Shown piece after piece: positions 15,687 to 52,375 of a stretch of DNA of 64,000 bases. The notes beneath the pieces are model-generated. The model saw nothing but the letters and a program-made list of their open reading frames with translations, had not been told where the DNA came from and searched no databases. Every line of letters begins with the position of its first letter. Positions within the stretch are counted from its first letter, which is position 1. The stretch lies in contig JANJGN010000017.1 in NCBI GenBank assembly GCA_026770705.1, positions 77,748,001 to 77,812,000 of the forward strand, read 5' to 3'. The position numbers and the translations under genes were made by a program. The stretch comes from Isurus oxyrinchus. Lineage: Eukaryota.

Positions 15687-16668
15687 GTAAGAGCTTTCTA
15701 CACAGAGGAAATCAAAGAGTTTTCTTGCTGCATTGACATTGAAAATATATTTCATATCCCAGCTTCAGCAATATTTTGTCAAATGTTCTGCTGTGACAAC
15801 AGAATAATGTTTAAACTCCCTTAACATGCAAAAGCATTCAAAGTTACCCCCGGAATATTTACAAATGTAATTCCTTTGTCTCCCTGCTTGTATCATAAAA
15901 CATGAACATGGTAGTGTGTCTTTTTGATTTTTTAAAAAGGCACAAGGATAAATTCAGGAATACTGCATTCCTGGAACAGAATCTTGCTCAATGGCAGTGT
16001 GAGCTCCTTGGCATTATATGGCCCATTCTGCATCCTGCAGTCCCACCAAATGAATCTAAGAGTTGAGAATTTCAGCATCACTGAATTTACCCCAAAGATT
16101 ACTAAGTAGTGCAATAGTCAGCTACTACAAGCCCAATGCCAGGAGATAATAGTTACAGCAGAGGTTTTTGTTGCTTCCTCTGTTTGTGGTTGTCACTTTA
16201 GAGGATTATCATAAGACAAGATCAATATCCTGAAAATTCCTACCTAACAGCCCTGTGGATTTACTTACACCACATGTACTGTAGTGGTTCAAGAAGGTGG
16301 TTCACCACCACCTTCTCAAGGACAATTAAGTATGGGCAGTAAATGCTTACCCTTCCAGGAACACCCACATCCCATTCATTCTGAACTATTCTGCAATCTG
16401 CTTATTGCAATAACTTTATTGTCTAATCACCTGCTTCCCTTCAATAGAGAATAATTTATGAGGATAAAATGGCCTGCAGATTTCTTGGACCAAATTCTCC
16501 TTAAAAATTTAATTTTGACGAGGTAGAGAATATTGCAACACAGGAGGCACAACACCATTCTTTTAGTTCTCTTTCGTGATCAATACCATTTGATTCAATT
16601 CTATTTGAAACTATTCAATTGCTGTAATTAACATTTAACAATTCATCAGCAAATTATTGAATTAATTA

Positions 16669-17734
16669 CAGAGATAAAAACAAAGAAAACTGCGGATGCT
16701 GGAAATCCAAAACAAAAACAGAATTACCTGGAAAAACTCAGCAGGTCTGGCAGCATCGGCGGAGAAGAAAAGAGTTGACGTTTCGAGTCCTCATGACCCT
16801 TCGACAGAACTTGATTTCGAGTCCAAGAAAGAGTTGAAATATAAGCTGGTTTAAGGTGTGTGTGTGGGGGGGGCGGAGAGATAGAGAGAGACAGAGGTGC
16901 TTGTGTAGACAAACAAGCAGCATTTCACTTGCATTTCCCCCAACTTAGTCTACTGCATTCGTTGCTCCCAATGTGGTCTCCTCTACATTGGAGAGACCAA
17001 ACGTAAACTGGGCGACCGCTTTGCAGAACACCTGCGGTCTGTCCGCAAGAATGACCCAAACCTCCCTGTCGCTTGCCATTTTAACACTCCACCCTGCTCT
17101 CTTGCCCACATGTCTGTCCTTGGCTTACTGCATTGTTCCAGTGAAGCCCAACGCAAACTGGAGGAACAACACCTCATCTTCCGACTAGGCACCTTACAGC
17201 CTTCCGGTCTGAATATTGAATTCAATAACTTTAGGTCGTGAGCTCCCTCCCCCATCTCCACCCCCTTTCTGTTTCCCCCCTTTTTTTCCCCTTTTTTTTC
17301 CCTATAAATTTTATAGATTTTTCTTTTCCCACCTATTTCCATTATTTTTAAATATTTTAAAATCTTTTATGCTCCCCCCACCCCCACTAGAGCTGTACCT
17401 TGAGTGCCCTACCATCCATTCTTAATTAGCACATTCGTTTAGATAATATCACCAACTTTAACTTTAACACCTATGTGTTCTTTTGTACCATTGTCGCTGA
17501 CATCTTTTGATGATCTGCTTCTATCACTGCTTGTTTGTCTACACAAGCACCTCTGTCTCTCTCTATCTCTCCGCCCCCCCCACACACACACCTTAAACCA
17601 GCTTATATTTCAACTCTTTCTTGGACTCGAAATCAAGTTCTGTCGAAGGGTCATGAGGACTCGAAACGTCAACTCTTTTCTTCTCCGCCGATGCTGCCAG
17701 ACCTGCTGAGTTTTTCCAGGTAATTCTGTTTTTG
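16669..17734 (+). mobile_element. Penelope-like element, 5'-truncated, with an inverted pseudo-LTR
   Basis: 16669-~16920 is an inverted copy of the tail; 16921-17734 is the GIY-YIG end plus tail. 14-bp TSD tattgaattaatta at 16655-16668 and 17735-17748. Confidence 0.9.
17636..17674 (+). ncRNA. Minimal type-I hammerhead ribozyme-like motif (variant core CUGUCGA)
   Basis: agtt-CUGUCGA-A-GGGUC(augag)GACUC-GAAAC-GUC^-aact. Related copies at ~4698-4735(-), 4736-4773(+), 6889-6927(+), ~10172-10211(+), ~10524-10562(-), ~11409-11448(-) and ~16772-16811(-). Confidence 0.7.
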
Positions 17735-18189
17735 TATTGAATTAATTATCTGTACATAAATTTATTAAAATATTTAACATCTATTCATTGCATACATATC
17801 TAATCTGCACTATATGAAATAAAGCGCCATTGATGCATTGTCCTCACCATGTATTATGCACAGAGATTGCAAAATAAAACCTGCTGTTTGTATGAACAAT
17901 TAATCATTAATATATTGCCAGTCTCACAAAAAGCTTCTCCTAACTTTGCGCATGATGTTGGAGTCTATTCGTAAAACAGATTGAGTTTGATGTTTCTATT
18001 CAAAAGTTATCTGTGAACTTTTAAAAAAAGTTGTGTCCCTAAATATATCCATCTGTCACATCCATCACATTACTCAAGCTTAACGTGGTAAATTGGTGAA
18101 CTATACATCCAGATACGATATTTTGGTTATTAATCTGGAACATAACAGAATGATAGGATGTTTTCCATAATTTTCCAAAATGATAATCA

Positions 18190-20268: not shown

Positions 20269-23200
20269 GGCCTGAATTTTTAACTCGGCAGGCGGGCACA
20301 ATTGGCAGGCCTGGGATCAGCCAGGAAATGGACCACTGACCGCGATTTCACACTGGCTGGCCAGGGTGGGGGCGGGAAGAGGGCAAAGAATGACATCAAG
20401 GCGGGCGAGGTTGAGCACTGAGAGAAATCTCCCTGAAGGCATGGAGCTTATAACCATCAAATAAAGTTTCAAAAATCCGGAAAAAAATGTCCCAGCATCA
20501 GAATCAGGCAAATGAAAGTATAGATGATAAAAATGCAGTCCACAGATTTTTATTTTTATTTTATTTCCTAACAGAAACCACATCCCACCCTTGGATGAGG
20601 TTTCATGAAAAATGTAAAGGCTATCTGGCCAATTTGCCCGTCCACCAACCATAAGGTTGGATGGACCATGAAAAATCAGAGTCAATTTTTCCATTAATGG
20701 GCTTAATTCCCTCTTAATTGTCGGCAGGCACGCTTCCAACTTTTGCGCACACCTACCGACCGGAATATCACACGAGATTGGGATAACGTTGGGACGCTCG
20801 CCCAATGTCATCTTGCCGGATTCCATGTCCGGTGCAGGAAATGCGGCCGGGTATGCGGGAGCATCTTGGGGGAGATATATGAGATTATGCTTGGCTTGGT
20901 CTCCGTAGTGGAGGAGTGTACTCCGACAATCATCGAAGCAATAAGCCACATGTCCGAGCACCATGCGTCCTCCATGGACAGAGTGACGACTCTTGTGGAG
21001 AGGCTCCTCCAAGAGAGCAGCCGGGGCTTCCTGGGGAAGCGCTCTGACCAGCAAGCCCTCACATCGGCATTGACCTCAGCAATTTTCCCAACTCGGTGCC
21101 CATCCACCCACGGTGAGCAGGGAGGTCCGAAGCAACTTCACATCGTCATAGCAGCTGCCTGCCATCTCTGCGGGCACCTCTCAGGATGCTCCGGTTCAGA
21201 GCAGCAGCTCCTCTGCCCCTCTCTCAGTGACCGTAGAATACAGTAAGGCTGCGACGACTGAGGAGATGCCAGATGCGGAACTAGCAGATCCCTCCTAGGC
21301 GGGGCCAGCACAGGGTCCATTGGCCAGACGACGACCGCCAAGGTCATCAAGGCCAACAGGACAGCAGAGTCAGCAGGTTGTCTCAGATGCCACTCCCAGC
21401 GATGGGGCAGTGTCAAGATGTAGCACCCAGAAACATAAACATAAGGCACCCAAGGCGCACTATTACTGGTGCTTTTGTGTTGGGCCGAGATGAGGTCTTT
21501 ATGATTTGCTTTGAATTGGAACACTATTATCATTTTTTTGGCTTAAGTTTCTTTGCTTGTGATATTAAATTCAGACATGTGACCTTGGCTGAGGGTGCTT
21601 CTTTCCTTCTGCATGTGTACGGGTTCCAAAAATGTTAGGAGTGCTTTGTGGGAATTCAGCTTTATTAACAAGCCCTTAGTTACTGTTCCTAACTTGGAAG
21701 ATTTGGCACTTAGGTATCAAGTATGGAGCCTACAGCTCAGGCTTGTCCTGGAGGCCCATCTGTGGTGTGCTAGTTGAAGGTTCTTTGGATTTGGAATGTT
21801 CTGTGGCGTCCCTGCCTCCCTGCAGTATTCTTGGGTCAGCGTCTTTGCCCTCAGCATTTCCTTGTGCATGCTTATCCTCAGACTCACTGCTGGACTCTTC
21901 ATGTGCAGTCGCAGCCACTGTATCGATGTCTTCATCATCCACTGCATCCCCCCTTTCCAGTGCAAGATTGTGGAGAGCGCGGCGTGCAACAACTATCACT
22001 GAGACATGAACTAGGAGGTTCTGGAGTGTGTCCCCTGAGGGGTCCAGGCATCGGAAGGGCATCTTGAGAAGACCGATGGTTCTCTCCATCACAGCCCTTG
22101 TGGAGGCATGACTCCTATCGTACTGCTGCTCAGCTTGTACTCTTGGATGGCGGAGAGGTATGATGAGCCACCTTCTGAGGGGATAGCCCTTGTGACCCAG
22201 CAGCCATCCATCAAGTCGGGCTGGAGCACTGAACAGCCCCCGCACCTGGGAGTGTCTGAGGATATAGGTGTCATGGGAGCTGCCTGGGTACCTTGCACAG
22301 ACTTGTAGAAGCTGCATCCTGTGGTCACACACTATCTACACATTCATGGAGTGGAAGCCCTTCCTGTTGATGGAGGCACCAGGCTCACCTGCTGGCGCCT
22401 TGATGGCCTCGTGTGTATAGTCTATTGCACCCTGGACACGGGGGAAGCCAGCAATGGCCACAATGCCTCTGGCTCACTGTGTCTGGCTTGCCTGGTCCCA
22501 ACAGAAGTGGGTGAAGGTCAATGCATGCCTAAACAGAACGTCTGTAACCTGCTTGACACAAGTGTGGATAGCTGATTGGGAGACACCTCAAAGATCACCC
22601 ACCGACCCCTAAAAGGAGCCAGACGCATAGAAGTTGAGGGCAGCAGTGACCTTCAGAGCCATTGGCATGGGGTGTCCACCCACACAGTGAGCGGAGATCT
22701 CAGGCCCAGTCATCTGACTGATATAGTTGACTATCTCCTTTGAGAGACGGAGCCTCCTTTGTGACTGCACTCCTGACGTATTGAGGTAGCTGCTTCGTTT
22801 CCTGTATACCCTGCCACGATAGTCGCGTCTTCTGCGGCCCCTTCTGCCTTGGTCTACCTCTTGGCCCTGCGCCTCTTGTGCCTGCGCCTTTCTTCCTAAA
22901 TGTGGCTACCTTGGAGGTTGAATGTGCACTCCTGGCCTCCTCCCCCTTCTAGTCCTCCCTTCCTCCTCAAAGGAGGTGCCTTCAGTGGACAGTTCAGCTC
23001 CCATTCCCAGGCTAAGGGAAGGCTTCTTGAAACCTGCAGGCCCAAAAAAGATTCCTCACTGCAGAGTGCTGACCTGAAGTTTAAGAGTCCAGACAAAACA
23101 GCTGGTATGTGTTTTGAAGTATTGCAGATCACACAGGCAAAGATATTTTTCAATATCTTTGAAAAATCAATACTTGAGAGAGCACACTCGCGACCCCACA

Positions 23201-30225: not shown

Positions 30226-30388
30226 GTAAGCTTTGTATTATCTGTGATATTATTTGTGGGACCCAGTTCCCACAATGCTTGTGAGAGTTAATCATTATTA
30301 TCTAAATATTTCATTTATTCTACGTGAATATATACTTGCTGCAAAACAATCACATCAGTTTACAATAACTTACAATTTATACTTCAAG

Positions 30389-30538
30389 GTATACTGGTTT
30401 AAAGATGGTAAACAAATTTCCAAGAAGAATGAACATTTTAAGATGAAGCGCGATGGCGATGGTGCATGTTCATTGCATATTGAATCAGCCACTAATGATG
30501 ATGACGGCAACTACACAGTTATGGCAGTAAATCCCCAG
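30389..30538 (+). CDS. MYPN: Myopalladin coding exon, Ig3 core (VYWFKDGKQISKKNEH...DDDGNYTVMAVNPQ)
   Basis: Acceptor ttcaag|gta and donor cag|gtgagc; 150 nt; I-set Ig motifs WFKDG and DDGNYT. Confidence 0.96.
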
Positions 30539-33085
30539 GTGAGCACCAAAATCTTTAATTGGAATGTGTGATTTGTCAGCTCATCTTCTGTTTCCATTGC
30601 AACCTGTATCATTATATGATTACAGGATGCACAATTTTTATGGAAATGAAACTGTGAATTGCGATTGTTCAAATAGTAAAGTACATCTGAAGGGAGGGTG
30701 TGCTATTTTTCTGCTCTCTCATCATCATACGCCCATTATGTAGTTATACTCTGAGGCCATTCGCCTCCTGAGCCTGTTCCAGCATTCAGTGAGATCATGG
30801 CTAATCTGCGGCCTAACTCCATCTTGACCATCTTTTGCCCGATATCTCTTAATATCTTGGGTTAATCTTTTATTTTTCCCTCTATCACTTCTTAATAGAT
30901 TAAATGTTTGCCAATAATTTGTTGCTAAGGCACAAGCCCTCTCCATAAGGCTTCAAGGCATTTCCAGTGACGAAGGAGTATGGATGAATCATATAGACAT
31001 ATCACCAATACTAGCAGATACACAAGTTTTTCTATGGGTGGAATCTTCGCAGATTTGCATTAAGTGCGGTAGCGGGTGTGAAAAAAGATGTTTTACCTGC
31101 CGGCCACAATGGCAGGTTTTTGCACCATATCGCCCCCTTCCTGCCTCATAAATTATGCAGTCACGGGAAACACACTAGATCGCAGGCGGGCGGCTTCCGA
31201 TTTGCCTGCCTCACCGTTACCTCGCTGCTTCCTCACACTGGGCGCCATATTTAAACTGCAACCGCCTGTACACTTCTCAATGCTTGCAACTCAGGACTCC
31301 TCTGGTGAAGACATGGCACCAAAAGCCAAGAAGAGTGAGCCCCCCGATTCAGTGACACATCCCTGGGAAGCCTGCCGGACGCTGTGGAGGCCCACTGCGA
31401 TGTCCTCTGCTCCTGTTCTGCCACAGGAAGCCCATAAGTCTCAGCACTCCAGCTTGGGAGGCAGAGGCAGAAGTGGTCAGTGCCAACACTGCACACAAGG
31501 GTTCAGCCATCCAGTACAGAAAACAGATGAATGATCACATCCGTGCCGCCTGGGTAAGTCAGCCATCTCATCGATCTCAACTCACCCACTCACAAGCCTA
31601 TCACATATTCACTGGCATCTCACTCACTGCCAGTTCAAGGGACATCACCACTTACTCTCTCTCACTTACCCTCACATCTCCAACTGGCCTCATTTCCTCT
31701 GGACACTGCCTCCTCATCCTGTCCATGGCTCCACTCAGCACACATGCACTCCTGGCATCCCTCTCACTTAGCCTGCAATGCACCTTCATCATACTCACTC
31801 CATCTGTCTTTATGCAGGACTAAGATTGTGCATAATCAACAGGAGAGGTCCCAGACCAAGGATGGAGTGCCAGAATCAAGGTCCTCACTCCATTCGAGAG
31901 TTGTGCATTGGAGCTAGTCAGAGAGGACGTGGATTGTTTCTGCGGCGATAGTGAGGTCGGTAGCGAACACCCACATGAGGATTCTGCGCCACATCATCCC
32001 TCTCTCAACACTACTCTGAGTCCATTCTTCTGTGTTCAACACAGCTGCCAAGCAGTAATAATCTCCACTTCCTGTCCTAGGCACATCTGACACATCGCTC
32101 TCAGGCAAACTTGACCTCAGCCCCAGCACTAAGAGTACCTTAGATGAGGATCTAAGGGCAGCACAGTTGAAGACCCATCACAGTACTCACCCATACCCTC
32201 CACCAGTGCAGCGATACACACCTCGGTGCGACCTAGATGCAGAGCAGCCTCGGGCTGTCCCACAGCAGGCAGACGCAGGGACATCCTTGGTCGCCAGCAC
32301 TCTGATGACTGCTGGAGGCAAGGAATCTGCTGAGTCAGATGATGAGTCTCTGGACTCAATCAGTTGGTGGAGCTTCAAAGACAATCACGGGAACATCATG
32401 ATGGGATGCCTAGTGCACTCCATCGATTGCAAGGGACAATGGAGGAGTCCGTTCACCTTCAGTCCGAGGTGATAGCACCAGCATGCCGATACACTGAGGT
32501 CAACCCTGGCAGAATGGTCGCTGCCATGGAGACCTTGGTCCAGGACATCAATCCTGCACTGCTGCCCGGGCTGAGCTCCCATCACTGACACCATAGGTGG
32601 CCTCCAACAGTGTCAACGTGAGAGGGATGTGGGGCAGCTCGATCTCACTTCAGTTTTCCCTTCTCCTCAAGGAGTCAGCTAGGGGCTGTTGGGCACCCAT
32701 GGGGAGGAGGACCAGCAGCTCGATAACCTGGGGCCGTCCACCCAGGTGACTCCAGAAATGTCTGGCTGATCCAATTCCCCCCTTCCTGTGATCCCCGTAG
32801 CTCCAGCGACACAGGTCAAAGAGGATGCAGCTGGTCCACAGCAGGACAACCAAAGCAGGCCGGGGTCCTCCAGAGGACATCCGTCAAGGTCATCATAGAC
32901 AGGGCATCACAGTCAGCAGGCTGCCTCCATCTCCATTGTGAATGTCAGGGGAGCACCAAGATGTAGTGGTATGGTTAGGAAGGTTAAGAAGATGTAACTC
33001 TTTCGAGTACAAACCCGTTTCCATCTGTTTCAGATGAAGTTACATTGTTTCATAGTTTTGCCATTGTGAGATTTGAACTCTTGAT

Positions 33086-34365
33086 AATCTTTTAAATGAA
33101 AACAATTAAACCAAATCAACAAAATTGGGATAAATCAGGCACAGCCCCTAATTCAGGTCAGCTGTAAAACCAAGGACAAAAATTTAAAGGAACCTTACAA
33201 ACTTTAAATCAAAATGTGATTAAAGGGGTCAACAAAAAACCCCAGTCCCCGCGGTGCCCACCGAGCACGGAAGGCCTCGAGAGTGCCAGCAGACACCGTG
33301 TGCTCCCTCTCCAGGGACATCCAGCAGCGAACGTAGCCGCGGAAGAGGGACAAACAATCGGGCGGGACTCCCCTGTCGATCGCCTGCTGCCTGGACCTGT
33401 TAATGGCCAACTTGGCCAGGCCCAGGAGCAGGTTCGCGAGGAGGTCCTCCTCCTTCCCGACCCCCTTCCGCACCGGGTGCCCATAGATCAGGAGCGTGGG
33501 GCTGAAGTGCAAACAAAACATCAATAAAAGGTTTTTCAAATAACTAAAAAGGGAGTGCAGCCTACAACACCCTATGTATACATGGTCCACGGACTCCACA
33601 AGACCGCAAAAAGGGCACGTGTCCTGAGAGTCCGTGAACCTATGCATCCTCTTATTATAGGGGACTGTTGCATGCAACACCCTCCAACCCAGGTCCCCGA
33701 TAAAAAGGGGGAGGACACCTCCGTAGACGGCCTCCCACGGGGTGCCTCCGCCGCCGGACGGCAACAAGGCACGCCAGGGCGTGTCCGGTCGACGGACAAG
33801 GGCGAGAAAATGGAAGGTGTGCAGCAGCAGTCCATACAAAAAGCCCCTCTTTGCCGTGCCAAAAGGCACGGAGGTCATGTCCCCAAGGAGGCTCATATTG
33901 CGGGGCACCAGCACCCGAGGGAGGGTTCGGGGCTTGGAGCCAATGTGGAATTCTGTCCAAATAGGGGAACGTTCGGACGGAAGACCATGGCGCACCCGGG
34001 CCACTTCAAGACCCAAAATAACGTCGGGTCCGAGCACGACCGTTCTCAGGTCTTGGATGGCATCGGCTGCGACCTGGACACTCACAGATGCACGATGCGC
34101 CAACTCCTGCGGGAGCATCCAGCCCAGTCCTCCGCCACCCAGCACGTCCCCGATCCTGGTCACCCCTGCGGCCACAGCCCTCCTCTCCGCCAACCACTGA
34201 AAAGGACGGAGGGGCGGATTCCTGAGCAGCGGCTCTCTGATGATAGCCGCTACTCCTGATGGGGGAGAGCTGCGTCGCGAGGCGACCACTTTCCAGACTT
34301 TGATCAGGTCCTGGTAAAAGACGGGCAAAGCCTGCAAGGAGCCACCCAGGCCCATCTGTTCTATA
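33086..34365 (-). mobile_element. Tx1-clade non-LTR retrotransposon, 5'-truncated (copy 1)
   Basis: Open ORF 33204-34355 with the Tx1 ORF2 C-terminus: GDLGWRVLH, zinc knuckle CPFCG..ESVDH....C, HFSPTLLIYG, DLLANLLLGLAKLAI.RSR. Confidence 0.9.
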
Positions 34366-34489
34366 TGGGGTTACAAACCCAGTACCATAACCACTTGGCT
34401 ATTTAGGCCAAGCTAAAACACGTTTCCATCTGTTTCAGATGAAGTTACATTGTTTTATAGTTTGCCATTGTGAGATTTGAACTCTTGAT

Positions 34490-35804
34490 AATCTTTTAAA
34501 TGAAAACCAAATCAACAAAATTGGGATAAATCAGGCACAGCCCCTAATTCAGGTCAGCTGTAAAACCAAGAACAAAGTTGAAAGGAAACTTACAAACTTT
34601 AAATCAAAATGTGATTAAAGGGGTCAACAAAACACCCCAGTCCCCGCGGTGCCCACCGAGCACGGAAGGCCTCGAGAGTGCCAGCAGACACCGCGTGCTC
34701 CCTCTCCAGGGACATCCAGCAGCGAACGTAGCCGCGGAAGAGGGACAAACAATCGGGCGGGACTCACCCGTCGATCGCCCGCTGCCTGGACCTGTTAATG
34801 GCCAACTTGGCCAGGCCCAGGAGCAGGTTCGTGAGGAGGTCCTCCTCCTTCCCGACCCCCTTCCGCACCGGGTGCCCATAGATCAGGAGCGTGGGGCTGA
34901 AGTGCAAACAAAACATCAATAAAAGGTTTTTCAAATAACTAAAAAGGGAGTGCAGCCTACAACACCCTATGTATACATGGTCCACGGACTCCACAAGACC
35001 GCAAAAAGGGCACGTGTCCTGAGAGTCCGTGAACCTATGCATCCTCTTATTATAGGGGACTGCTGCATGCAACACCCTCCAACCCAGGTCCCCGATAGAA
35101 AGGGGGAGGACACCTCCGTAGAGGGCCTCCCATCGGGGGCCTCCGCCGCCGGACGGCAACAAGGCACGCCAGGGCGTGTCCGGGCGGCGGACAAGGGCGA
35201 GAAAATGGAAGGTGTGCAGCAGCAGTCCGTACAAAAAGCCCCTCTTTGCTGTGCCAAAAGGCACGGAGGGCATGTCCCCAAGGCGCCTCATTTTGTGGGG
35301 CACCAGCACCCGAGGGAGGGTTCGGGGCTTGGGGCCAATGTGGAATTCTGTCTGAACAGGGGAACGTTCAGATGGAAGACCACCGCGCACCTGGGCCACC
35401 TCAAGACCCAAAATAACGTCGGGTCCGAGCATGACCGTTCTCAGGTCTTGGATGGCATTGGCTGCGACCTGGACACTCACAGACACACATCGCGCCAACA
35501 CCTGCGGGAGCATCCAGCCCAATCCTCCGCCACCCAGCACATCCTTGATCCTGGTCACCCCTGCGGCCACAGCCCTCCTCTCCGCCAACCACTGAAAAGG
35601 ACGGAGGGGCGGATTCCTGAGCAGCGGCTCTCTGACGATAGCCGCTACTCCTGACGGAGGAGAGCTGTGTTGCGAGGCGACCACTTTCCAGACTTTGATC
35701 AGGTCCTGGTAAAAGACGGGCAACACCTGCAAGGAGCCACCGAGGCCCAGCTGTTCTATAAACAGGAGCTGCACGTCATAATTCAGACCGTGCATCTGAC
35801 GGAA
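34490..35804 (-). mobile_element. Tx1-clade non-LTR retrotransposon, 5'-truncated (copy 2)
   Basis: ORF 34764-35795 ends at a premature TGA. Same family and same 3' junction as copy 1. Confidence 0.9.
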
Positions 35805-38800
35805 TAAGAAGATGTAACTCTTTCGAGTACAATCACATTTCCATCTGTTCCTATTCAGATGAAGTTACATTGTTGCATAGTTTGCCATTGTGAGATTTGA
35901 ACTCTTGATCTTGAGGTTACAAACCCAGGACCATAACCACTTGGCTATTTAGGCCAAGCACTCTTTCGAGTACAAATCCCTTTCAATCTGTTTCAGATGA
36001 AGTTACATTGTTTCATAGTTTGCCATTGTGAGATTTGAACTCTTGATCTTAGGATTACAAGTCTAGTACCATAACCACTTGGCTATTTAGGCCAAGCGTT
36101 AAGAAGATGTAACTCTTTCGAGTACAAAACCGTTTCAATCTGTTTCAGATGAAGTTACATTGTTGCATAGTTTGCCATTGTGAGATTTGAACTCTTGATC
36201 TTGGGGTTACAAACCCAGTACCATAACCACTTGGCTATTTAGGCCAAGCGTTAAGATGATGTAACTCTTTCGAGTACAAACCCGTTTCCATCTGTTTCAG
36301 ATGAAGTTACATTGTTTCATAGTTTGCCATTGTGAAATTTGAACTCTTGATCTTGGGGTTACAAACCCAGTACCATAACCACTGGCTATTTAGGCCAAGC
36401 ACATGTTTCCATCTGTTCCTATTCAGATGAAGTTACATTGTTTGCTATTGTGAGATTTGAACTCTTGATCTTAGGATTACAAGTCTAGTACCATAACCAC
36501 TTGGCTATATAGGCCAAGCTAGTACCATAACCACTTGGCTATTTAGCCCAAGCGTTAAGAAGATGTAACTCTTTCAAGTACAAACACATTTCCATCTGTT
36601 CCTATTCACATGAAGTTACATTGTTTCATAGTTTGCCATTGTGAGATTTGAACTCTTGATCTTGGGGTTACAAGCCCAGTACCATAACCACTTGGCTATT
36701 TAGAAAGTTGCACAGCCTGGGATTGGGTGTTAATCACTTGTACATGTGTTCACTATTGTAAATAAGCTCCCAGGAATGTCTCCTTGCCCATGACTCCTTG
36801 TTATGATGAGCAGTGTTCGTGTCATTGTGAAATCTTGGTTACTTCACAAGATAAAGGCAGGTGCCTCAGTCCAGGACCACTTCCCTGTGAAGTGTGTAGC
36901 CTTCAGAGCAAAGTGATGGTCCAGCTTCATATTCACTGGACACATCAGTGATGCCTGTACCTTGATGGTGCTTTTCATTGCTGCCAGAATGTCATAGGCA
37001 GGTGTCATAGACTATCATTCTCTCTGAGTGCTCTCAGCACCTTTGAGGTGGGGCTAGCCACCTGTCACCAGTGATTGTGTGCTCCTGAAGGGATCAGGTA
37101 CTGAAGGCTGACAAAATATCAGGTGCATTTAATGCTTCATGGCTGCGTCTCCATGATATGACCCTGATCACAGAGCACAAACGAGCTGCCCTCAACCAAA
37201 CAGGAATCAGAAATTCACTGATGCAAGGTGAGTATGTAAGGACTGTCCTCACTGCATGTCGTCATCCTGCAGCTATGAAGGCCTACAAAGCGCACCTGCC
37301 TCTTCTGGCCAGTGCAATGGCCTCATCACCAGGACCCTCACCTTCAAGAACCTCATCACCGTCATCCCCTTTGACGACTTTCTCATCGGAGGAGACGTGC
37401 AGCGCTTCCATCTCCTCCTTAGCCAGACCCTCTCCCCATTGCAGCACCAAGTTTTGTAGCATGCAGCAAGCTACGATGATGCGGGACACCCCCTGGGGAC
37501 TGTTTTGCAGTGCTTCATCAGACCTGTTGAGGCACCAGAATCTCATTTTCAAGATGCCTATTGTTTGCTGCACGGAAGTCCAGGCTGTGGCATGAGCCTT
37601 ATTTTACTGGCACTCTGCTGCTGCCTGAGGCCGCCACATGGGCGTCACATCCTCTGTGGGTAGCCCTTGTCTCAAGGAGCTAATCCTGAAGCCTCTGTGG
37701 ACCCTGGAATAGGTCAGGGATCTGAGACCTGCTAAGGATATCAGAGTTCATGGATGCTCCCTGGGAAGCATGCGCAGACCTGTGGGATATGTTTGTGGTG
37801 GTCACAAACCAGCTGAACGTTCAGCAAGTGGAAGCCCTTGAAGTTGATGTAGTTGACTGCTTGTTGCCATGGAGTGCCACATGAGTGCAGTCGATGGCAC
37901 CCTGCACCTGTGGAAAACCAGAGATCTGCGCAAATCCCAGCGCTCTTACCTCCTGTTTTTCCTAATCCCAGGCAAAATGCACAAAGCTCTGTGCCTTCAT
38001 GAAGATGGCGCCCATTACCTCCTGGATACACTTGTGGGTGGATGCCTGCGAGATCCCACACATGTCACCTGTGGAGCCCTGGAAGGAGCCACTGGCGTAG
38101 AAATTGAGCGTCGCCGGGAAAAAGCGACTTGGCTGTGCGCACCCACAAATGCAGGGCACCTCTTCCTTGCTGCCCTATGGGCAATGCTCATGAATGCTGC
38201 TCAAGGTTGTGTGCAGTCACCTCCAAGTTCATCTTGAAGTTCAGGTCGCCAGATGCACGCCTTTTAAAGGCAGTCATGAAGCTCACCGTTCTGAAGTCAC
38301 ACCAACGTGGGAGGATGATTCCGGCATGAGGGCACAATAATGAGATGCAAGTACATTAAAATTAAGTTCCCGATGTTGGATGGCGGGAAAAGCCGCCCGC
38401 CATTGACAGGTGGAGTGGACAATGGGAAACTGGTTTAACAATGACATGAAACCTGTTTTTGGCCTTCTCACCATATTTTCTGCTCACGCCTGCCTTGACA
38501 CCTTCCGCCAATGGGACTGGACGATTCCACCCATATTTTTCCCTTTGGCTTCTGGAATAAATTTCAAAGGGGTGTAAATGTCTGGGGGCACATTTTCTTT
38601 CTAAAATACTCTTCCATTTTTTAAAAGAAATCATTCAAATGCACTAATAATCTCCTGGAGGTCCAGCATTTCCAGGTCACTTTGTGAAATCCCCAGCACA
38701 TGTGTGCCTCAAGGCTGCTCCATTGCCTGCAGTCACAAATATGACTTTGCAGTAGCCTGAGAACCAATCTGGAAATGCCTAACTGCAGAGAACATCATAT

Positions 38801-41464: not shown

Positions 41465-44180
41465 TGGGGAGGCGATGGGGTAGTGGTATTATCTCTGGAC
41501 TAGTAATCCAGAGACCCAGGGTTAATGCTCTGGGGGCCTGGGTTCAAATCCAACCATGGCAGATGGAATCAATACAAATCTGGAATTAAAAGTCTAACAA
41601 TTGTTAATTGTTATAAATTTCCATCTGGTTCACTACAAAGGAAATCTACTGGCCTACATGTGACTCCAGAATAGGCAGGGTCCTGCCCTACCAGCAGAAC
41701 AGACCCAACAGAAGAGGTGACACAGTGATATACAGTTGGGAGGGAGTTGCCTTGGGTGTCTTGTCAAACCTGGACCCCATGAAGTCTCATGGCATCAGGT
41801 CAAACATGTGCAAGGAAACCATGGGCTGATTACTAGGAACCGACACCCCCTCAGCTGATGAATCAGTGCTGATTCACTGATGGTGGCAAGGGCCTTGTAC
41901 CTTGGGTAGGGGAGTGGCTCGGTAGCATCACTACTGACTGAGCTGGCTGAGTCCCAGTCCTAAAGGACATGGTTGCTGGACTGGGTCTGTGGCAAGTGGT
42001 AAGGGAACCAACAAAAAAGGAGAAACATACTTCACCTCATCCTCACCATTTTCTGCAGATGCATCTGTCCATAACAATATCGGTAGGCATGGACCTGGTC
42101 CCGAGTCCTGCCTGAGGATGCCCTCCATCATGTTCTGTGGCACTACCATTGTGCCAAATGGGATAAATTTGGAACAGATCTAGCAACCCAATCCATCAAC
42201 AGCAGCAAAATTCCAATCAAACACAATCCGTAACCTCATGGCCCAGCATATCCCCCACTCTGCCATTACCACCAAGCCAGGGGATCAATTCTGGTTCAAT
42301 GAAGAGTGCAGGACGGCATGCCAGGAGCAGCACCAGGCATACCTAAAAATGAGGTGTCAACCTGATGAAGATACAACACAGGACTACATGCGTAAATAGC
42401 AAATGATAGACAGAGCTAAGCAATCCCACAACCAACGGATCTAAGCTCTGCAGTCATGCACATCCAACCATGAATAGTTGTGAACAATTAAACAACTCAC
42501 TGGAGGAGGAGGCTCCACAAACATCCCCATCCTCAATGATGGGGGAGCCCAGCACAGCAGTGCAAAAGGCTGAAGCATTTGCTACAATTTTTAGCTAGAA
42601 GTGCCCAGTGGACAATCCATCTCAGCCTCCTCTTCAGATGCCAGTTTTTAGCCAATTCTGTTCATTCCACGTGATATCAAGAAACGGCTCAAGGCACTGG
42701 ATAGTGCAAAGGCTATGGGCCCTGACAATATTCTGGCAATAGTACTGAAGACTTGTGCTCCAGAAATTGCCACACCCCTAGCCAAGCTGTTCCAGTCTAG
42801 CTACAACAGTGGCATATACCCAGCCATGTGGAAAATTGCCCAGGTATGTGCTGAACACAAAAAGCAGGACAAATCCAACCCGGCCACTTACTACCCCATC
42901 AGACAACTCTCGATCATCAGTAAAGTAATGGAAGGGGTCATCAACAGTGCTATCAAGTGGCACTTGCTTAGAAATAACCTGCTTACTGATGCCCAGTTTG
43001 GGTTCCACCAGGGCCACTCAGCTCCTGACCTCGTTATAGACTTGATTCAAACATGGACAAAAGAGCTGAACTCCCGAGGTGAGATGAGAGTGACTGCCCT
43101 TGACACCAAGGCTACATCTGGATGAATGTGGCATCAAGGAGCCATAGCAAAACTGGAGTCAATGGGAATCAGGGGGAAAACACTCATTCATACCTAGCAC
43201 AAAGGAAGGTGGTTGTGGTTGTTGGAGGTCAGTCAGCTCAGCTCCAGGACATCACTGCAGGAGTTCCTCAGAGTATTGTCCTCAGCCCAACCATCTTCAG
43301 CTGCTTTATCAATGACCTTCCTTCTATCATAAGGTCAGAAGTGCGGATATGCACTGATGATTTCACTATTTGCGACTCCTCAGATACTGAAACAGTCCAT
43401 GTCCAAATGCGGCAAGACCTGGGCAACATCCAGGCTTGGGCTGACATGTGGCAAGTATCATTTGTGCCACACAAGTACCAGGCAATGACCATCTCCAGCA
43501 CGAGAGAATCTAACCATTGCCCCTTGATGATTATCCTGGGGGTTAGCATTGACCAGAAACTGAACTGGAATAGCTATATAAATACTGGCTACAAGAGCAG
43601 GTCAGAGGCTAGGAATCCTGCGACAAGTAACTTATCTCCTGACTCTCCAAAGCCTGTCCATCATCTTCAAGGCATAAGTCAGGAGTGTCTTGGAATACTC
43701 CCCATTTGTGGATGAATGCAGCTCCCACAACACTGAAGGAGCTGGACCGTCCAGGACAAAGTAGCATGCTTAATTGGCACCACATCCACAAACATTCACT
43801 CCCTCCAGTACCAACACACAGTAGCAGCAGTGAGTACCATCTAGAAGAATTCACCAAGGCTTGTTAGACAGCACCTTCCAAACCCATGACCACTGCCATC
43901 TAGAAGGACAAGGGCAGCGATAGATGGGAACACCACCACGTGGAGGTTCCCCTCCAAGTTACCATTCTGACTTGGAAATATATAGCCGTTCCTTCATTGT
44001 CGCTGGATCAAAATCCTGGAACTCCCTTCCTAACAGCACTATGGGTGTACCAACACCACATGGACTACAACAATTTAAGAAGGCAGCTCACCACCACCTT
44101 CTGAAGGACAGCTAGAGATGGGCAATAAATGCTGACCCAGCCAGCAAAGCCCACATCCTGCGAATGAATAAAGAAAAAAT
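41465..44180 (+). mobile_element. tRNA-headed CR1-group LINE derivative (EN and RT remnants)
   Basis: Head with A- and B-boxes (tggggtagtgg...ggttcaaatcc). RT pieces GPDNI..VLK.CAPE, QFGFHQGHS, GVPQS..LSP..F..FINDLP. 3' tail gggcaataaatgctg...gaataaagaaaaaa. Confidence 0.82.
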
Positions 44181-45129: not shown

Positions 45130-48100
45130 GGGCAGAATTTTGAATTCGGCACACAGGTGCAATCGGTGGGCCTGGGAGTAGCCAGGAAATGTGCTGTCAC
45201 CCGTGTTCGGCCCCTCCCTGACCGTGATTTCAAGCTCGCGGGCCAATTAAAGCCTGTTGAGTGTGAACGGCGGCTCCCCAATGACCAAGAAGTGGCGTGC
45301 AAGGGAAGGGGCCTATTGGCTGCCTGGTCCAATGGCGACCTGGTGGCCAGTTTAAAACCAGCACAGTCAGCCCTGAAAGGCTGCCAGTGATGAAGACATC
45401 TTCGGTGTTGTCAACAGGAGATTATAAATTATGGATTCAAATGTAGCTGCAGATGCCAGATGGGAGGACAGATCGGGCAGGCACTCGGCCTCACGGTTTT
45501 CTGATGAGTACCTCGCGGTCCTCTTGGAGGAGATGGCTGCCAGGAGGGACACCCTTGTCCCCAGGAATGGAAGGAGGAGGTCACTGCACCTTTCAAAAAG
45601 AGCTTGGGAGGAGGTGGCAGCGCTGGTCAGCAGCCATGATGTTGTGCAACGCATCAGGATTCAGTAGCACAAGAGGTTTGATGACCTGCTGCGCTCAGGA
45701 AGGGTGAGTACTATGTTGGCATGGATCAGTGTGTTGAAGTGTTAAGGGCTGGCCATACCCCAATGGAGGGGTGTTAGAGTCTGAGTGCTAACTGTCAATG
45801 ATGCCAGAGCTAACCAAGGGGGTGAGCCCTGGCTGCTTGGACTGAGTGCCTTGTGGCTCAAGGGCCACAACTCGGATGTGCCCTGCAAGATGCTCCTGAG
45901 ATGGGATTGGCCATGCTGCAGTGGCGCTGCAGGTAGAAAGTGGACTAACCAATGCTCCTCTGTCCTTTCAGGACAAGATGGCCCATAACAACATTGAGGA
46001 GCAAAGGACAGGCAGCAACCCCCCCCCAAACCTCCCAATCCTAACCAGGTATGGGCAGGATGCCTCGGAGCTGGAGAGGCACTATGCACCTCGGTCAACT
46101 GGCCGCAGAGAGGCTGGGGTGTCAGATGAAGGTAAGAGTGCAGTGCACAGTGGTGAGAGTTTCAGATGGTGCAAACATTCATCACTGAATGGGAGCCTCA
46201 AAACTGGATTCCCGTTGATCATTGAAAGATGATGGCACCATGATGCAGATCTCCATTGTCTCACCAGGGTGCCTAGCACGCACAGTTACAGTGTGGTGGC
46301 TAAGGGTGACATGTTCTCCCTTAGATTTGCCACCCAATTGCAGCAACCCAAAGAGCCACCCCTGACACCAGAGGACCACCAGGCTCTAGATGCACCTGCA
46401 TCACACCCGCTTTCTCAACCAGGCACCAGCGCAGATTTCAGCACCTCGGTGGGTGTTAGATCTTCAGCTAGAACGTCGGTGCATATTGGTGAGGGCACTT
46501 TACACTCACTGGAGATACAGGAGGAGGCAGGGAGTGTCCAGGGCACCAGCAGTCAGAGGACTGCTGGAGACCAGGACGATATTGAGCCAAAGGCAGATGA
46601 TGAGCCTCTGGAGTTGTCCATTAGGCGACAGAGGCTGGATATCCAGTGGAATGTGTGGGAAGATCTGGCGGAGATCCATGGACGTGGGGAAGATGTTTCC
46701 ATTAGTAGGAGAGACTAGGACCCAAGGGCACAGCCACAGAGTAAAGGGAAGACCTTTTAGAACGGAAATGAGGAGAAACTCCTTTAGCCAGAGAGTGGTG
46801 AATCTATGGAATTCATTGCCACAGAAGATGTGGAGGCCAGGTCATTGAGTGTATTTAAGACCCAGATAGATAGGTTCTTGATTGGTAAGAGGATCAAAGG
46901 TTACAGGGAGAAGGCGGGAGAATGGGGTTGAGAAACTTATCAGCCATGATAGAATGGTGGAGCAGACTCGATGGGCTGAATGGCATAATTTCTGCTCCTA
47001 TGTCTTATGGTCTATGAGGGTACACGTGCCATGGTCTCCGTTGTGGAGGAGTCCATGCGGAGCATTAGCACTGCGCTGACCCTCATGGCTGAGTGCACTG
47101 CCTCCTCCATTAAGAGAGTGGCGACTCTCATGGAGAGGCAGCTCCAGGAACAGAATCCGGGGTTCCTGGGGTTGTGTTCGGACCTGCAAGCCCTCACACA
47201 GACATTGACCTCAGGTGGTCAGTGTCCATATGGGAGATGGATGAGGTACCCAGTATCCCAGCTAGGTGCTCATTCATCAACCTCATGTTGGCGTATGAGC
47301 TGCCTGTCATCTTTGCGGGCTCCTCTCAGAGCGCTCCGGATGATGGCAACAGCTCTTCCACCCCTCTGCCAGTGGCCGTGTAATCTGATGAGGCTGCGGC
47401 AACTGGGGAGATGCCAGCTGTGGAACTTGCCGCTCCCTCCCATGCGGGGCCAGCACAGCCTCCACTGGCCAGAGGACACCCACCAACGTTATCAAGGCCA
47501 ACAGAACAGCAGAGTCAGCAGGCTGTCTCCAATGCTGGTGCTAGTGAAATGGGTGCACCAAGACATAGCACTTGCAAACATAAGTTTAAGGTGCCATGAG
47601 CACAAGAGGGACTGGTCACGGGTAATCTTCTGTTGTGCAATGTTTTATTTATGTTTACTGCTCTGGGGTTGAAGACCAGAGAAGGTGCTGTTAATTTGTT
47701 TTGACTGTCAACATGAGATAAATTTTCTTTTGTCGTAATGGCCTGAGTATAGTATGCTTCACCTTTTTTGTTTAATGTGGTGCAGGGTACGCCGGTATAT
47801 AATGCTGGACATAAGTGGCGCGAAACTTAATTGCACTGAATGGACTTTGAGGTCAAAAGAAAGGGTCATTGCAGGCATTCGGGATGGAGGCGGCAGCCCT
47901 GGCATGAGGTGGTAGCACTTATTTGGCAGCCTAGCTGAAGGAGCATTGGATCAAGGCACCCCTGGTGTCCCTGCCTCCCTGGAGGTTACAGAGGTCTGCC
48001 TCCATGCTCTCAGCATTCTCCTCACTGTGCTCCTCTTCTGACTGACTCCTAGCTTCATCATCTGCGGCCTGTGGAGCTGTATCAAGATCCTCTTCCTCCA

Positions 48101-49627
48101 GTAGGTTCCCCCTTGCCAATGCCTGATTGTGGAGAGCTTGCAACCACTATTAGTGACACCCACTTTGGGGGGGGGTATCGTAGTGCTTCACCTGAACAGT
48201 CGAGGCATTAGAATTGAATCTTCAGAAGACCAATGGTTCTCTATCACCGCCCTTGTGGAGCCATGGCTCCTGTTATACCGCTGCTCTGCCTCTGTTCTTG
48301 GTGGGGAGGTGTCATAACCCACCTTTCAAGATATAGCCCTTGTCACCCAGCAGCCATTCATGCAGTCGGGCTGGAGCACTTAAGGTCCTCGGCACCTGGG
48401 AGTGTCTCAGGATGTAAGCGTCGTGGGAGCTGCCTGGGTACCTTGCACAGATTTGCAGAATCAGCATCAAGTGGTAACACACTATCTGCACGTCCATGGA
48501 GTGGAAGCCCTTCCTGTTGACGAAGGCACTGTACTCACCTGCTGGTGTCTTGATGGCCACATGTGTACAGTCTATTGCACCCTGGACGCGGGGGAAGCCA
48601 GCAAACACTGCAAATCCTCTGGCTCACTCAGTCTGGCTGTCCGTATGGAAATGAATGAAAGTCAATACCCAGCTGAACAGAGCTTCTGTCACCAGCTTGA
48701 TGCAACTGTGGACAGCTGATTGGGAGACTCCACATAGATCCCCCACTGAGCCCTGGAAGCAGCAAGAGGCATTCAAGTTGAGGGCCACTGTGACCTTCAG
48801 AGCTAATTGAATGGGGTGTCCACCCACACAGTAGGAGCTGATCTCAGGCCCAATCATCTGACAGATGGAGGTCATTGTCTCCCTTGAGAGGCGGAGCCTC
48901 CTTCGGCATTGAGCCTTGGACATACTGAGGTAGCTGCATTGCCGCCCGTAAACCCTGGCTGCAGGGTAGTGGCATCTTCTGCTGCCCCTAACGATTTGGA
49001 ATGCCAGCTGTGCCTGTGCCTCTCTTCCCACAGGTCGCTCCTCTGGAAGTTGCATTGGGACACCTGGCCTCTTCTCCCTTCTGCCCCTCTCTTTCTTCTC
49101 AGAGGAGATGACACCAGTGGAGACCACAATCCTGATTAGCAGGGGTAAGGGAAGGCTGTCTGATATATGGAAGGGTCCACACGGTCAGAATTCTCCGGGG
49201 TCCTACAAGAAACCAAGGAGCCCTGAAATGACGCCTGGAAACGTGAGCAATGAAGCCCCGAACAGTGATGAAGCTGCCATATACCACTAAGTCACTAGCA
49301 ACAAGCAATCTGCCAAACTCGTCACTACTCACACTGGCAATTCTGCTGACCCTTTTAACTCTGTCCTTGAATGAGGATTTTGAAATTATCGGCTGGCCGC
49401 CTGCCCGAATTGCTCATGCGATGAGTGTAAAACCGCACGGTCAATGAAAAATAGGGGTCAATTGCCTTTTTAATGGCCTTAGCTGGCCTCTTAATTAATG
49501 GCCGGCGTAGCTCCGGCACCTGCCAACTGAAATATCGCACAAATACGCTCACCTGACGTCATCATGCTCTATTTTACACTCGAGCGGGTCGGGCACATGC
49601 CTGGCCACTCAGTAAAAAATTCTGGCC
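45130..49627. mobile_element. Near-complete PIF/Harbinger transposon: spliced Myb/SANT-like gene (+, 45431-47599) convergent with transposase (-, ~49130-47931)
   Basis: TIRs gggcagaatttt / aaaattctggcc with a 3-bp TSD AAA. Transposase motifs GAIDCTHV, NRKGFHS, YPGSSHD, LLGDKGY. Both genes carry stops or frameshifts. Confidence 0.92.
46685..47012 (+). mobile_element. CR1 3' fragment nested in the Harbinger Myb gene
   Basis: KMFPLVGETRTQGH...RTEMRRNSFSQRVVNLWNSLP and a tail tcttatggtctatg. Confidence 0.85.
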
Positions 49628-49790: not shown

Positions 49791-51718
49791 ACTCCAGGCC
49801 CCAAACCCTAGTCTCTCAGCCTCACTTTCTCTTCAGGCCTCAGATTTTCCACCAGCCTTGACCTCACTCTTTCCCCTCGGCCTCAATCTCTCCCTACGGC
49901 ACCAGTCCCAAGCTCTCCTCCCCCCACCCCCAGACTCGGTCCCACTCTCCATCCCATCCAGTGATAGTGACTTACAGAGGGGAGGTGGCACCTTGAGCTT
50001 GGCCCATCACAGGAAGGAACTCTACAGGCTGCATCTGAGCTACTGCAACAACCAATCACAAAGCGATTTAAAGGCAGCTGGCTTTGCTTCAAGCATTGCT
50101 GAATGCATCATTCATGTGCATGTTTCTTAGATATGGTCATGTGATAATTAGTCCTTTCTATTGAGGTTTGTCAGTGAAGAAATGTCTTGGGGACTGTATT
50201 GTTACAGTTCTGTTATCTATTCTGCCTATGCCCTGGGGAACTTGAATTGTCTTCCATTCAAGTATATCTCTCAAATTGCTGCTAATAATACTTGGTGAAT
50301 TAGACAAGGAGGCTGTTGTGTCATAGAATAAAGCATTTACAAGTTCCTGAAACTGCGGTAGATAGCATACTAGATCACAGCCACTACAGCCTATAGCAGG
50401 ATCTAGCAGTGTAAACATGAATGCAATCCTCACTTTTATTACCACAGTTAAAACAGTTCTATTGGTTGACGGTGTGTCCAGACCTGGATGTAGAAGATAG
50501 TGACTGCATCTTTGTTAATGGCCCAGATTTTCCATTCCCAATTGCAGTGCATGCTGAGACGTTCAGCACTATTGAAGGCTACAGTGGCACTGTAACTTGC
50601 AGCGATCTCACTTGTGCCAAGATATGGAAATTGTGGTGTGTCTCAATGGGCTCTGGATGAGTGTAAGCTACACAATGCATGTATAACACACTGGATCATC
50701 TGGGACTTATAAAAACTCGATGATCTCATTTGATGTCAGTTGAATGCTTGTGAGTACTTTGAAGGCAGTTAAATATTGCTAAATGATAACAAAAGATGTT
50801 GTTTGAGCACTGTATGATTTCATTTGATGTCAATTGATAATTAATGTCAGCTGACCGCTATTTGATTACATGGGATGTCAAATGATGGCTAAACGATGAC
50901 TTTTGAGTGCAGATTATGTCAAATGATGGTTAAATGACACTTTGGAGCGCAGACAATCGCAAGTGAATACATATGATGCCTGTTGCATGCAAATGATGTC
51001 AACATTTTCTGGTAGGGATATGTCTAAAGGAAAGTCTGTTGCTTTACTTAAAAGACCTTACCTTGGTCTAAGCAGTGAGGCTTGTGTGAACTTCTGCACT
51101 TTTTGCATTAAAGGTCATAATAAGGTCTTGCTTAATTTTGTTATTGGATAATTTCAATTAACATGAGCATAAAGAGTGAATATTATGGGCCAAATAACTG
51201 TGTCTTGGTTTTAAAAACTGTTTTGGTAGAATTGCAAGCATCTGTTTCTATACCATGCAGATCAACTGTTATACAAATAGCACCAATTGACTTTGTTCCC
51301 TACCTTCCTTGAGTGTGATTAACTGCACTTAAGTGGAAATAAATATGGTAACAATCTATCCCTGTCTTACACCAGTTGCAAATGTTTTCACTTGGTCAAT
51401 GTGCTGAACTTTATATGTGGATACAAGGCATTCAGGCAAAATATAATTCCTTTATCTTCAGTCATTCATCTCAAATATTTAATTATTTTCTGCTCCCGTT
51501 GGCCGAAGGATCAAGAGCCAGAGGACACAGATTTAAGGAGATTGGCATAAGAAACATTGGTAACATAAGGAAAACCTTTTTTACTCAGAGAATGGTTAGG
51601 ATCTGGAATGCATTGCCTGAGACTATGATGGAGGCAGATTCAATCGTGGCTTCCAAAAGAGAATTGGATCATTACCTGAAGAGAAAAAATTGCAGGGTTA
51701 CAGGGAAAAGGCAGTTCT

Positions 51719-51857
51719 GGTATGATAGCCAAGTGGTTATGGTACTGTGCTTGTAACCCCAAGATCAAGAGTTCAAATCTCACCATGGCAAATTATGAAA
51801 CAATGTAATTTCATCTGAATAGGAACAGATGGAAATGTGTTTGTACTCAAAAGAGTT
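51719..51857 (+). mobile_element. Solo copy of the tRNA-Thr-derived short element, inserted in a CR1 3' fragment (~51480-51960)
   Basis: Same head and tail as the array units; TSD ttacagggaaaaggcag on both sides (~51698-51714 and ~51857-51873). Confidence 0.88.
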
Positions 51858-52375
51858 ACAGGGAAAAGGCAGGGGGGTGGTACTAGGTGAATTGTTCTTG
51901 CATAGACATGACAGGCCAAAGGCCTCCTCCTCTGCTGTAACCATTCTACAATTCTATTTTTGTTTCTTTTCCTCAATGATCTTGTCACAATTATTTTCTA
52001 ATGCAACTTCTGTGCCATTGGAATGCAAGCAATTACCTAGATGAGAAGTGAAAGGGTAAAGCAGTAACACTACAAAGAAAATGAATAGCTAACTAGAATT
52101 AGAAGCTGAGATACATAATTCAAGAAAGAAATCAGGTTGGCAACATGATGTCCTCTAAATAGAAAGTTAAAATAGGTTAAGTTTCCAATAAATTAAGTTA
52201 CTAAATACATTTCACACTGGCCTAGCAATTCAAAATAACAACTTGGATACAGATGTTTCCTCACTTATTGAATTTGATTGCACATTTCACTGCCTGCATC
52301 TTACCTGAGAAAGAAATCAAATGAATAATATCTAATTGCCCATGGTAATACAATTCGTCATGTATTAAATAACAG

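Follow-up and report, generated by a model that had tools for sequence, protein, structure and literature searches.

The 64,000-nucleotide stretch of Isurus oxyrinchus DNA analysed here (contig JANJGN010000017.1, positions 77,748,001 to 77,812,000; hereafter the window) carries an array in which two copies of a Tx1-clade long interspersed element (LINE), which we name Tx1-A, interrupt stacked copies of a short interspersed element (SINE) with a tRNA-like head, the whole lying inside an old Harbinger/PIF-type DNA transposon. Here we show that both Tx1-A copies end at one and the same nucleotide of the SINE, and that most exact Tx1-A ends in the genome do so too. A sibling family, Tx1-B, uses a site in the Harbinger transposon, and the SINE enters both sites. 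We propose that Tx1-A is a young sequence-specific LINE with a one-nucleotide target in a tRNA-Thr-derived SINE, that it likely copies the SINE into that target, and that it likely descends from Tx1-B.

Organization of the array

The host Harbinger element spans 31036..38533 on the minus strand, with terminal inverted repeats (TIRs) GGGTGGAAT at 31036 and ATTCCACCC at 38524. Within it, the site used by Tx1-B and by one SINE type, here called T-type (TTAAGAAGATGTA, 32984..32996, plus strand), is followed by the 3′ half of a minus-strand SINE (T-arm, body and ACTC/GAGT terminal hairpin; 32997..33085), severed by Tx1-A copy 1. The Tx1-A target, GAACTCTTGAT, occupies 33075..33085 on the plus strand, and from target-site duplications (TSDs) we place the first nick 3′ of 33085. 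Copy 1 (33086..34365, minus strand) is 5′-truncated and of an older type, A1, and comprises a 3′ untranslated region (UTR; 33086-33203) and the C terminus of open reading frame (ORF) 2 (33204-34365) with a zf-RVT match below cut-off. Its other flank is the SINE head, the tRNA 5′ half (34366..34413, minus strand), less 2 nt at the junction and with no TSD, as the first-pass annotation of this DNA had described. A further minus-strand SINE 3′ half (34415..34489), lacking its final ~14 nt, is severed by copy 2 (34490..35804, end approximate, minus strand), which is of the younger A2 type, 5′-truncated and interrupted by one in-frame stop. Copy 2 adjoins a target repeat, TAAGAAGATGTA, and then an intact SINE, with a TAA microhomology at the join. 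Six stacked SINE monomers follow on the minus strand over 35817..36703 (35817-35959, 35960-36097, 36112-36249, 36264-36400, 36405-36519 and 36568-36703), several with copies of the Harbinger site between them; TTAAGAAGATGTA reappears as a spacer at 35805, 36099, 36251 and 36555.

The shared end of the two Tx1-A copies, GAACTCTTGAT|AATCTTTT at 33085/33086 and 34489/34490, is as first reported, and on the sense (minus) strand its position between anticodon arm and T-arm corresponds to the tRNA variable loop. The copies do differ, with 94.9% identity and an 8-nt indel in the 3′ UTR. Identity is higher than this in 46 of the 139 matches of copy 1 and in 70 of the 140 matches of copy 2, counts that contain overlapping fetches of single places; because each copy has closer relatives elsewhere, the pair did not arise by local duplication.

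A lone plus-strand SINE with a variant 5′ end (51725-51856) lies within a 16-nt TSD that starts TACA (51699..51872), which identifies the unit as a dispersed SINE. A subtype in which a different 5′ end replaces the first ~11 nt of the head occurs here (51715-51724) and at loci L007, L051, L081 and L106.

Tx1-A is specific for one position in the SINE

We searched the 4.98-Gb genome, and totals given here are exact pattern matches genome-wide, a lower bound on copies and an upper bound on events. The same 11 bases precede 1,939 of 2,776 exact Tx1-A 3′ ends (70%), comprising 124 of 182 ends of the copy-1 type and 1,815 of 2,594 of the copy-2 type; chance would give ~4e-6 per insertion under the generous assumption of ~40,000 such sites. 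The first-pass annotation had named random 3′ flanks elsewhere as the outcome that would make the shared junction a single insertion later duplicated. That outcome did not occur: among the first 30 pattern matches by position, 23 lie at the SINE site and 28 follow TGAT. Both figures, 70% of exact ends and 23/30 in the position-ordered sample, lie above the 20% of flanks in one repeat used as a mark of specificity (PMC4494074). Across loci picked through junction searches and pooled, 122 of 132 Tx1-A ends follow TGAT (110 at the SINE site and 12 at a Tx1-A 5′ end, with 10 other). Off-target copies have TSDs of 12-15 bp ending GAT, so that the junction is correctly placed. SINE bodies beside Tx1-A fall into 11 and 13 classes, compared with 17 for bodies with empty sites, a variety that is about equal.

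The first reading had offered as target either the tRNA-Thr-like element or its source gene, and the former alone holds. Real tRNA-Thr(TGT) genes are uninterrupted: in 20 read of 90 motif matches there was neither the TGAT site nor an insertion at that point. Tx1-A does not behave as a tRNA-gene-targeting family, and the off-target flanks read are not tRNA-like. A degenerate tRNA-Thr pattern gave no match. The 5′ end of Tx1-A is itself a target, with 6 of 30 5′ ends read followed by another Tx1-A and 12 by a SINE body. At a few loci (L376, L390/L453, L454, L455 and L218), Tx1 copies with different 3′ ends share a single insertion point in another Tx1 copy's 5′ UTR. A third target at this spot is not established: three matches came from a pattern containing the site, and an unconditioned search gave two, one of them elsewhere.

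Full-length Tx1-A measures ~6.3-7.1 kb and has the two-ORF architecture of the Tx1 clade, an apurinic/apyrimidinic endonuclease (APE), reverse transcriptase (RT) and zinc motif in ORF2 and a zinc knuckle in ORF1. In locus L037, ORF1 encodes 712 amino acids (aa) with a zf-CCHC match below cut-off (E 0.003), and ORF2 is open over 1,303 aa with Exo_endo_phos (APE), RVT_1 and weak zf-RVT domains. The best named full-length match of ORF2 is Xenopus Tx1L, at 50% identity over 99% of the length by pairwise comparison, and a partial protein match to horn shark reaches 68%. The 1,303-aa frame is open in ~78 of the best 150 endonuclease matches by hand count, and judged from its sequences Tx1-A is a young family. 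Nine full-length copies stand in tandem at ~7.4-kb spacing, each with SINE pieces, at G000:C2:61831271-61890203 (L124-L132, L175), and like tandem spacings occur on C4, C7, C11, C26 and C35.

In presumed-RNA runs, assembled contigs, which give neither strand nor level, cover the SINE and Tx1-A. In a second organism 87% of junction-stretch words are present, and LINE, SINE and a SINE-in-SINE joint are all represented among its DNA contigs. Some of those contigs span the SINE/Tx1-A junction with ~21 nt on one side, below the 31-nt minimum of the comparison, which is only suggestive of the same junction there.

The SINE inserts by two routes

The SINE unit is ~138 nt long. Its head matches tRNA-Thr(TGT) genes of the same genome at 50 of 72 nt, ungapped, with Rfam tRNA scores of 23-27 bits in the window, below the cut-off of 29. 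At least 14,353 intact SINE sites exist, and SINE TSDs are 12-20 nt long. The first-pass annotation had noted a likeness between the SINE tail and the Tx1 end. For Tx1-A this likeness is weak, with only ~7 nt shared; the better match is Tx1-B, which shares ~18 nt including the ACTC/GAGT hairpin and targets a Harbinger transposon that was absent from the first reading. The accompanying idea that the LINE both mobilizes and parasitizes the SINE gains support from SINE copies that occupy the Tx1-A site itself and from others, flanked by TSDs, at unique TGAT positions.

SINE ends follow TGTA in 13,779 matches and the SINE's own site in 9,949. Because the latter could include amplified dimers, independent events were sought. 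At 107 places a SINE head runs into a copy of the site; of 30 read, 18 are whole SINEs with the site on both sides and a duplication of 10-16 nt, while 8 are unresolved, 4 began elsewhere and some are local duplicates. Among 30 of the 676 matches that lack a perfect site, 7, from five places, are SINEs at unique TGAT sites, with TSDs of 15-16 nt and all of one subtype. A single base of the terminal hairpin sorts with the route: 80 of 98 monomers of the TGAT route have C there, compared with 2 of 90 of the TGTA route; T is found in 98 of the first 100 TGTA-route matches. At unique sites, TSDs end in AT for Tx1-A (4/4) and the C-type SINE (4/4), and in TA for Tx1-B (14/14) and the T-type SINE (17/20). 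This sorting of the SINE types with A and B is the same kind of evidence by which SINEU was paired with Tx1-Mar, as described in PMC4494074.

Rare SINE copies carry the A-type end (AATCTTT) in place of the B-type end (L270; G000:C9:113438808). In the SINE body at 36112-36175 (minus strand), 8 nt form the complement of a stretch that runs from the SINE 3′ end on into the Harbinger site, as a read-through RNA would, and could close a stem in such an RNA, a match seen by eye and post hoc. SINE-body folding z-scores are near −1. A hammerhead or other ribozyme in the body was considered and set aside, with no CUGANGA core seen by eye and tRNA as the only hit among plausible Rfam families.

Tx1-B and the Harbinger site

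Of 66 ORFs scanned from homologous loci, 6 contain DDE_Tnp_4 (best E 1.5e-19), and by tblastn the transposase remnants of the host element map to window positions ~37295-37946. With this domain and 9-nt inverted ends the host qualifies as a Harbinger; a Myb/SANT second gene gave no match at E 0.01, and the flanks show no clean 3-bp (TWA) duplication. The Harbinger site has 1,251 exact matches genome-wide, and of 30 read, 15 are empty, 8 hold a SINE, 6 Tx1-B, 1 a few bases and none Tx1-A. Conversely, Tx1-B has 317 exact 3′ ends, and of 30 read, 23 use the Harbinger site and none the SINE site; 45 of 53 further Tx1-B loci follow TGTA and none TGAT. In the pooled loci 64 of 72 Tx1-B ends come after TGTA and none after TGAT. 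Locus L213 (G000:C1:25207500-25216500) holds a full-length, internally deleted Tx1-B in which a 5′-UTR minisatellite has expanded to more than 2 kb.

Tx1-A and Tx1-B are ~90-94% identical in ORF2 DNA. The 30 Tx1-A 5′ ends read, out of 291 and including nine from a single tandem array, all carry the Harbinger-site string TTAAGAARATG, which the 5′-end search pattern demanded, and after it the SINE site or a close variant; in the Tx1-B copy at L213 this string is the TSD. As the Harbinger site is thus kept as a relic at the Tx1-A 5′ end, the target likely switched from Harbinger to SINE. Tx1-B is the more diverged (2.8% against 1.1-2.0%), and at endonuclease residues 156-157 its EA resembles the DA of Tx1L, where Tx1-A has GV. 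From these sequences we infer a recent and likely Harbinger-to-SINE switch. Bodies of TGAT-route SINEs hold A1 copies in 0 of 32 cases and A2 copies in 11 of 49, which suggests that the wave of self-targeting SINEs likely arrived with A2.

Completion of truncated insertions

Among 67 on-target copies with a visible far end, 10 internal deletions were dropped. Of the 57 truncated copies used, 41 join a second SINE body, 10 a SINE head and 6 something else. Of 17 readable extensions, 2 match the locus, 1 is too short and the remaining 14 are foreign sequence, 12 of them with a T-rich tip on the RNA strand. Copies of U6 and 5S RNA also occur at such 5′ ends. Such ends are consistent with template jumps to Pol III transcripts that read through, after which the head would pair with the target. 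Copy 2 in the window fits such a jump, and equally a deletion back to the next spacer.

A variant site depleted of insertions

CTCGAT or CTCAAT replaces the normal sequence at the SINE's own site in 42 of 80 C-type TGAT-route monomers, compared with 4 of 88 T-type TGTA-route monomers. Variant sites filled by a SINE number 78 against 4,275 empty, and normal sites 9,949 against 14,353, an odds ratio of 38, with the caveat that stacks end at unhit heads by construction. The T-to-C change, frequent in the TGAT-route SINE lineage, would give immunity to further hits, and the depletion may reflect selection for escape.

Surroundings of the array

An I-set immunoglobulin (Ig)-domain exon (30385-30540, plus strand; Pfam E 1.6e-10) lies directly left of the Harbinger element, so that the array is probably within an intron of a muscle-type Ig-domain gene, perhaps a palladin-like one. 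The sole tRNA call by ARAGORN in the window (Thr, AGT, 90 nt; 41472-41561, plus strand) is the head of another common repeat. Two more diverged Harbinger-type transposase regions lie at 20878-22794 and 47013-48938, and a different repeat, with ORFs of up to 430 aa, is clustered at 4588-17778 in copies of both orientations that are 90-99% identical.

A model for stack growth and its alternatives

In our model the ORF2 protein of Tx1-A would nick after TGAT, with a pre-insertion preference for TGAT^nnTG, and the 3′-OH at the nick would prime reverse transcription of either Tx1-A or SINE RNA. A second nick 10-16 bp away would yield the TSD. Because TSDs, SINE bodies and the Tx1-A 5′ end each restore the site, stacks grow. 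Truncated Tx1-A complementary DNAs would likely often be completed by a jump onto SINE RNA, whose head matches the target. LINE and SINE are piled in thousands of stacks in the genome. We place the probability of the overall reading, a young Tx1-A specific for the SINE, likely copying it there and likely derived from Tx1-B, at about 0.78.

Several points weigh against it. DNA-level tandem duplicates are present in the exact counts (nine copies on C2; L040, L044), as possibly are amplified dimers, so that 9,949 overstates the number of events, and the pooled fractions, among them those for flanks, hairpin base, divergence, neighbouring bodies and extensions, are not genome-unbiased, given how their loci were picked. 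The SINE tail matches Tx1-B and not Tx1-A, so Tx1-A would have to use RNAs whose end differs from that of its own. TGTA-route SINEs, at 1.7% divergence, look younger than Tx1-B at 2.8%, and Tx1-B alone may therefore not have moved them. Which protein moves which RNA is deduced from shared sites, the A/B tree is unrooted, and 2 of the 17 extensions have the sequence of the local flank. At the variant site, divergence (1.3% against 1.7%) indicates that age explains little of the depletion, although recency may partly account for the unhit copies. One Tx1-B copy with an endonuclease loop of the A type, taken up below, also counts here.

Most shared junctions might instead be inherited. A Tx1-A inside a SINE might be transcribed together with the SINE 3′ half, and SINE dimers might be amplified whole by the TGTA route; many dimers do lie within a single TGTA-type TSD (L084, L092, L105), with 5′ extensions at L003 and L068 that match the local flank. 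Off-target Tx1-A copies nevertheless end precisely at the junction with a TGAT TSD of their own, and copies with both head and TSD exist (L013, L014). Tx1-A also strikes the Tx1-A 5′ end (12/132), the bodies beside it are heterogeneous, and whole SINEs occupy the site with TSDs of varied length. Co-mobilization is thereby refuted as a general explanation and is very improbable as such, but may account for a minority of junctions. More remote still is a single insertion that local duplication, or unequal crossing-over of a satellite, then multiplied: DNA-level duplicates are known at other loci, but the two window copies differ in subfamily and truncation point and have closer relatives elsewhere, and the junction recurs on many contigs. 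For this window, local duplication is refuted.

The cause of the switch is a separate question. The endonucleases of A and B differ by E156G, A157V, Q164P and L168R, clustered in the loop after the catalytic GDFN motif, with the B state in 3-4 of the 5 B copies, the only B endonucleases compared; a fifth difference, at position 94, varies within A. An alignment to the L1 endonuclease was used, a single-sequence AlphaFold model having been discarded (mean confidence score, pLDDT, 39.9). In it A and B agree in the β-hairpin loop and at the residue that aligns with L1 R155. In L1 these two features read bases downstream of the nick, as described in PMC1950540. The A and B sites differ only in four primer-side bases, and the bases past the nick look shared (G at +4 in 7 of 8 against 12 of 31; GTTG at the Harbinger site and CTTG at the SINE site). 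At L218, one of the five B copies, an A-type loop accompanies a B end at the Harbinger site. A search with the endonuclease of L214 found no family with its variants, the next match being at 88%.

These observations leave some room for the RNA. Read-through pairing is known in R1-type elements. A near-identical endonuclease might nick both sites while a few 3′ read-through bases from the donor flank, AUCA or UACA, select the primer end, so that the RNA and not the endonuclease would choose the landing site and the target would be inherited from the position of the donor. This agrees with the restriction of the A/B difference to primer-side bases, with the apparently shared bases beyond the nick and their unchanged readers, and with L218. 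SINE RNAs also appear to read into flanks, with 12 of 14 foreign extensions T-rich at the tip, and one SINE base sorts with the route. Against it stand the clustering of the four changes in the post-GDFN loop and the chance that L218, the one copy of its kind, is a mosaic. A swap of endonuclease between SART1 and TRAS1 moves the target, as reported in PMC7265360, and the Tx1L endonuclease is described as specific by itself (PMC1950540). We consider steering by RNA unlikely, though a good deal less so than co-mobilization. If it were true, the LINE would have turned on its own SINE, the SINE would have become self-targeting, an escape lineage would have been selected, and SINE RNA would serve as a splint that finishes LINE insertions. 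Our preferred cause is a change in the endonuclease loop combined with short RNA-DNA pairing at the primer end. L218, the unchanged downstream readers and the differing primer-side bases together make a protein-only model likely but incomplete.

Relation to known systems

Published accounts already include Tx1 families with other transposons as targets, and also a SINE mobilized by a family of this kind (PMC4494074; PMC3706591, PMC8869645, PMC3747384, PMC10702118); a LINE that targets its own partner SINE was the subject of no report that we found in the open-access literature, and PMC13343379 does not mention Tx1. The closest parallel is crocodilian Tx1-Mar and SINEU in Mariner-N4_AMi, described in PMC4494074, where a Tx1-clade LINE and a SINE likewise share a site in a DNA transposon, SINEs stand in tandem around the TSD, mobilization was inferred from the common target, and small nuclear RNA (snRNA) pieces occur at 5′ ends. 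In that system, however, LINE and SINE both aim at a third element, and SINEU begins with an snRNA head and ends in poly(A) (PMC4494074). Here the SINE derives from a tRNA, and its short 3′ hairpin end recurs in the LINE. A derived LINE family has this SINE as its target, the change of site is recorded in two sibling families, and one variant of the site escapes. Like Tx1-B, Tx1-9_AMi prefers Harbinger transposons, but according to PMC4494074 it belongs to a separate crocodilian group and inserts ~300 bp from the Harbinger 5′ end; compared by position, the Tx1-B site lies ~1.9 kb from one end.

Xenopus Tx1L (YTX2_XENLA) shares with Tx1-A the APE-RT-zinc arrangement and an endonuclease of 43% identity, in addition to the ORF2 match given above. 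Like Tx1-B, it inserts in a DNA transposon, Tx1D (PMC4494074); its target is another one, and the available sections of the source mention no partner SINE. Dewa, Mutsu and Keno are, like Tx1-A, sequence-specific members of the Tx1 clade at multicopy small-RNA loci, namely the tRNA-Leu spacer, 5S rRNA and U2 genes according to PMC3706591, whereas Tx1-A uses a SINE and avoids tRNA-Thr genes. SINE multimers and SINE-derived satellites resemble the present stacks as tandem arrays of SINEs or their parts, and are attributed in PMC10702118 to unequal recombination or to insertions that recur at one locus; in the present case growth of the arrays is explained by a defined internal target and TSDs. 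The insertion of Tx1-A at its own 5′ end has a counterpart elsewhere among LINEs. Zepp of Chlorella inserts into its own earlier copies, and is not known to have a SINE as partner or target.

Known site-specific LINE families are far apart, so a change of target is hard to study. Tx1-A and Tx1-B offer a sibling pair for TGAT and TGTA, with intact copies of one, few candidate residues and thousands of natural integrations. The question of endonuclease against RNA is thus directly testable, with a bearing on engineered targeted retrotransposons. The system also offers a mechanism by which a dispersed SINE would be turned into tandem arrays, and LINE and SINE may be in a conflict in which one allele escapes.

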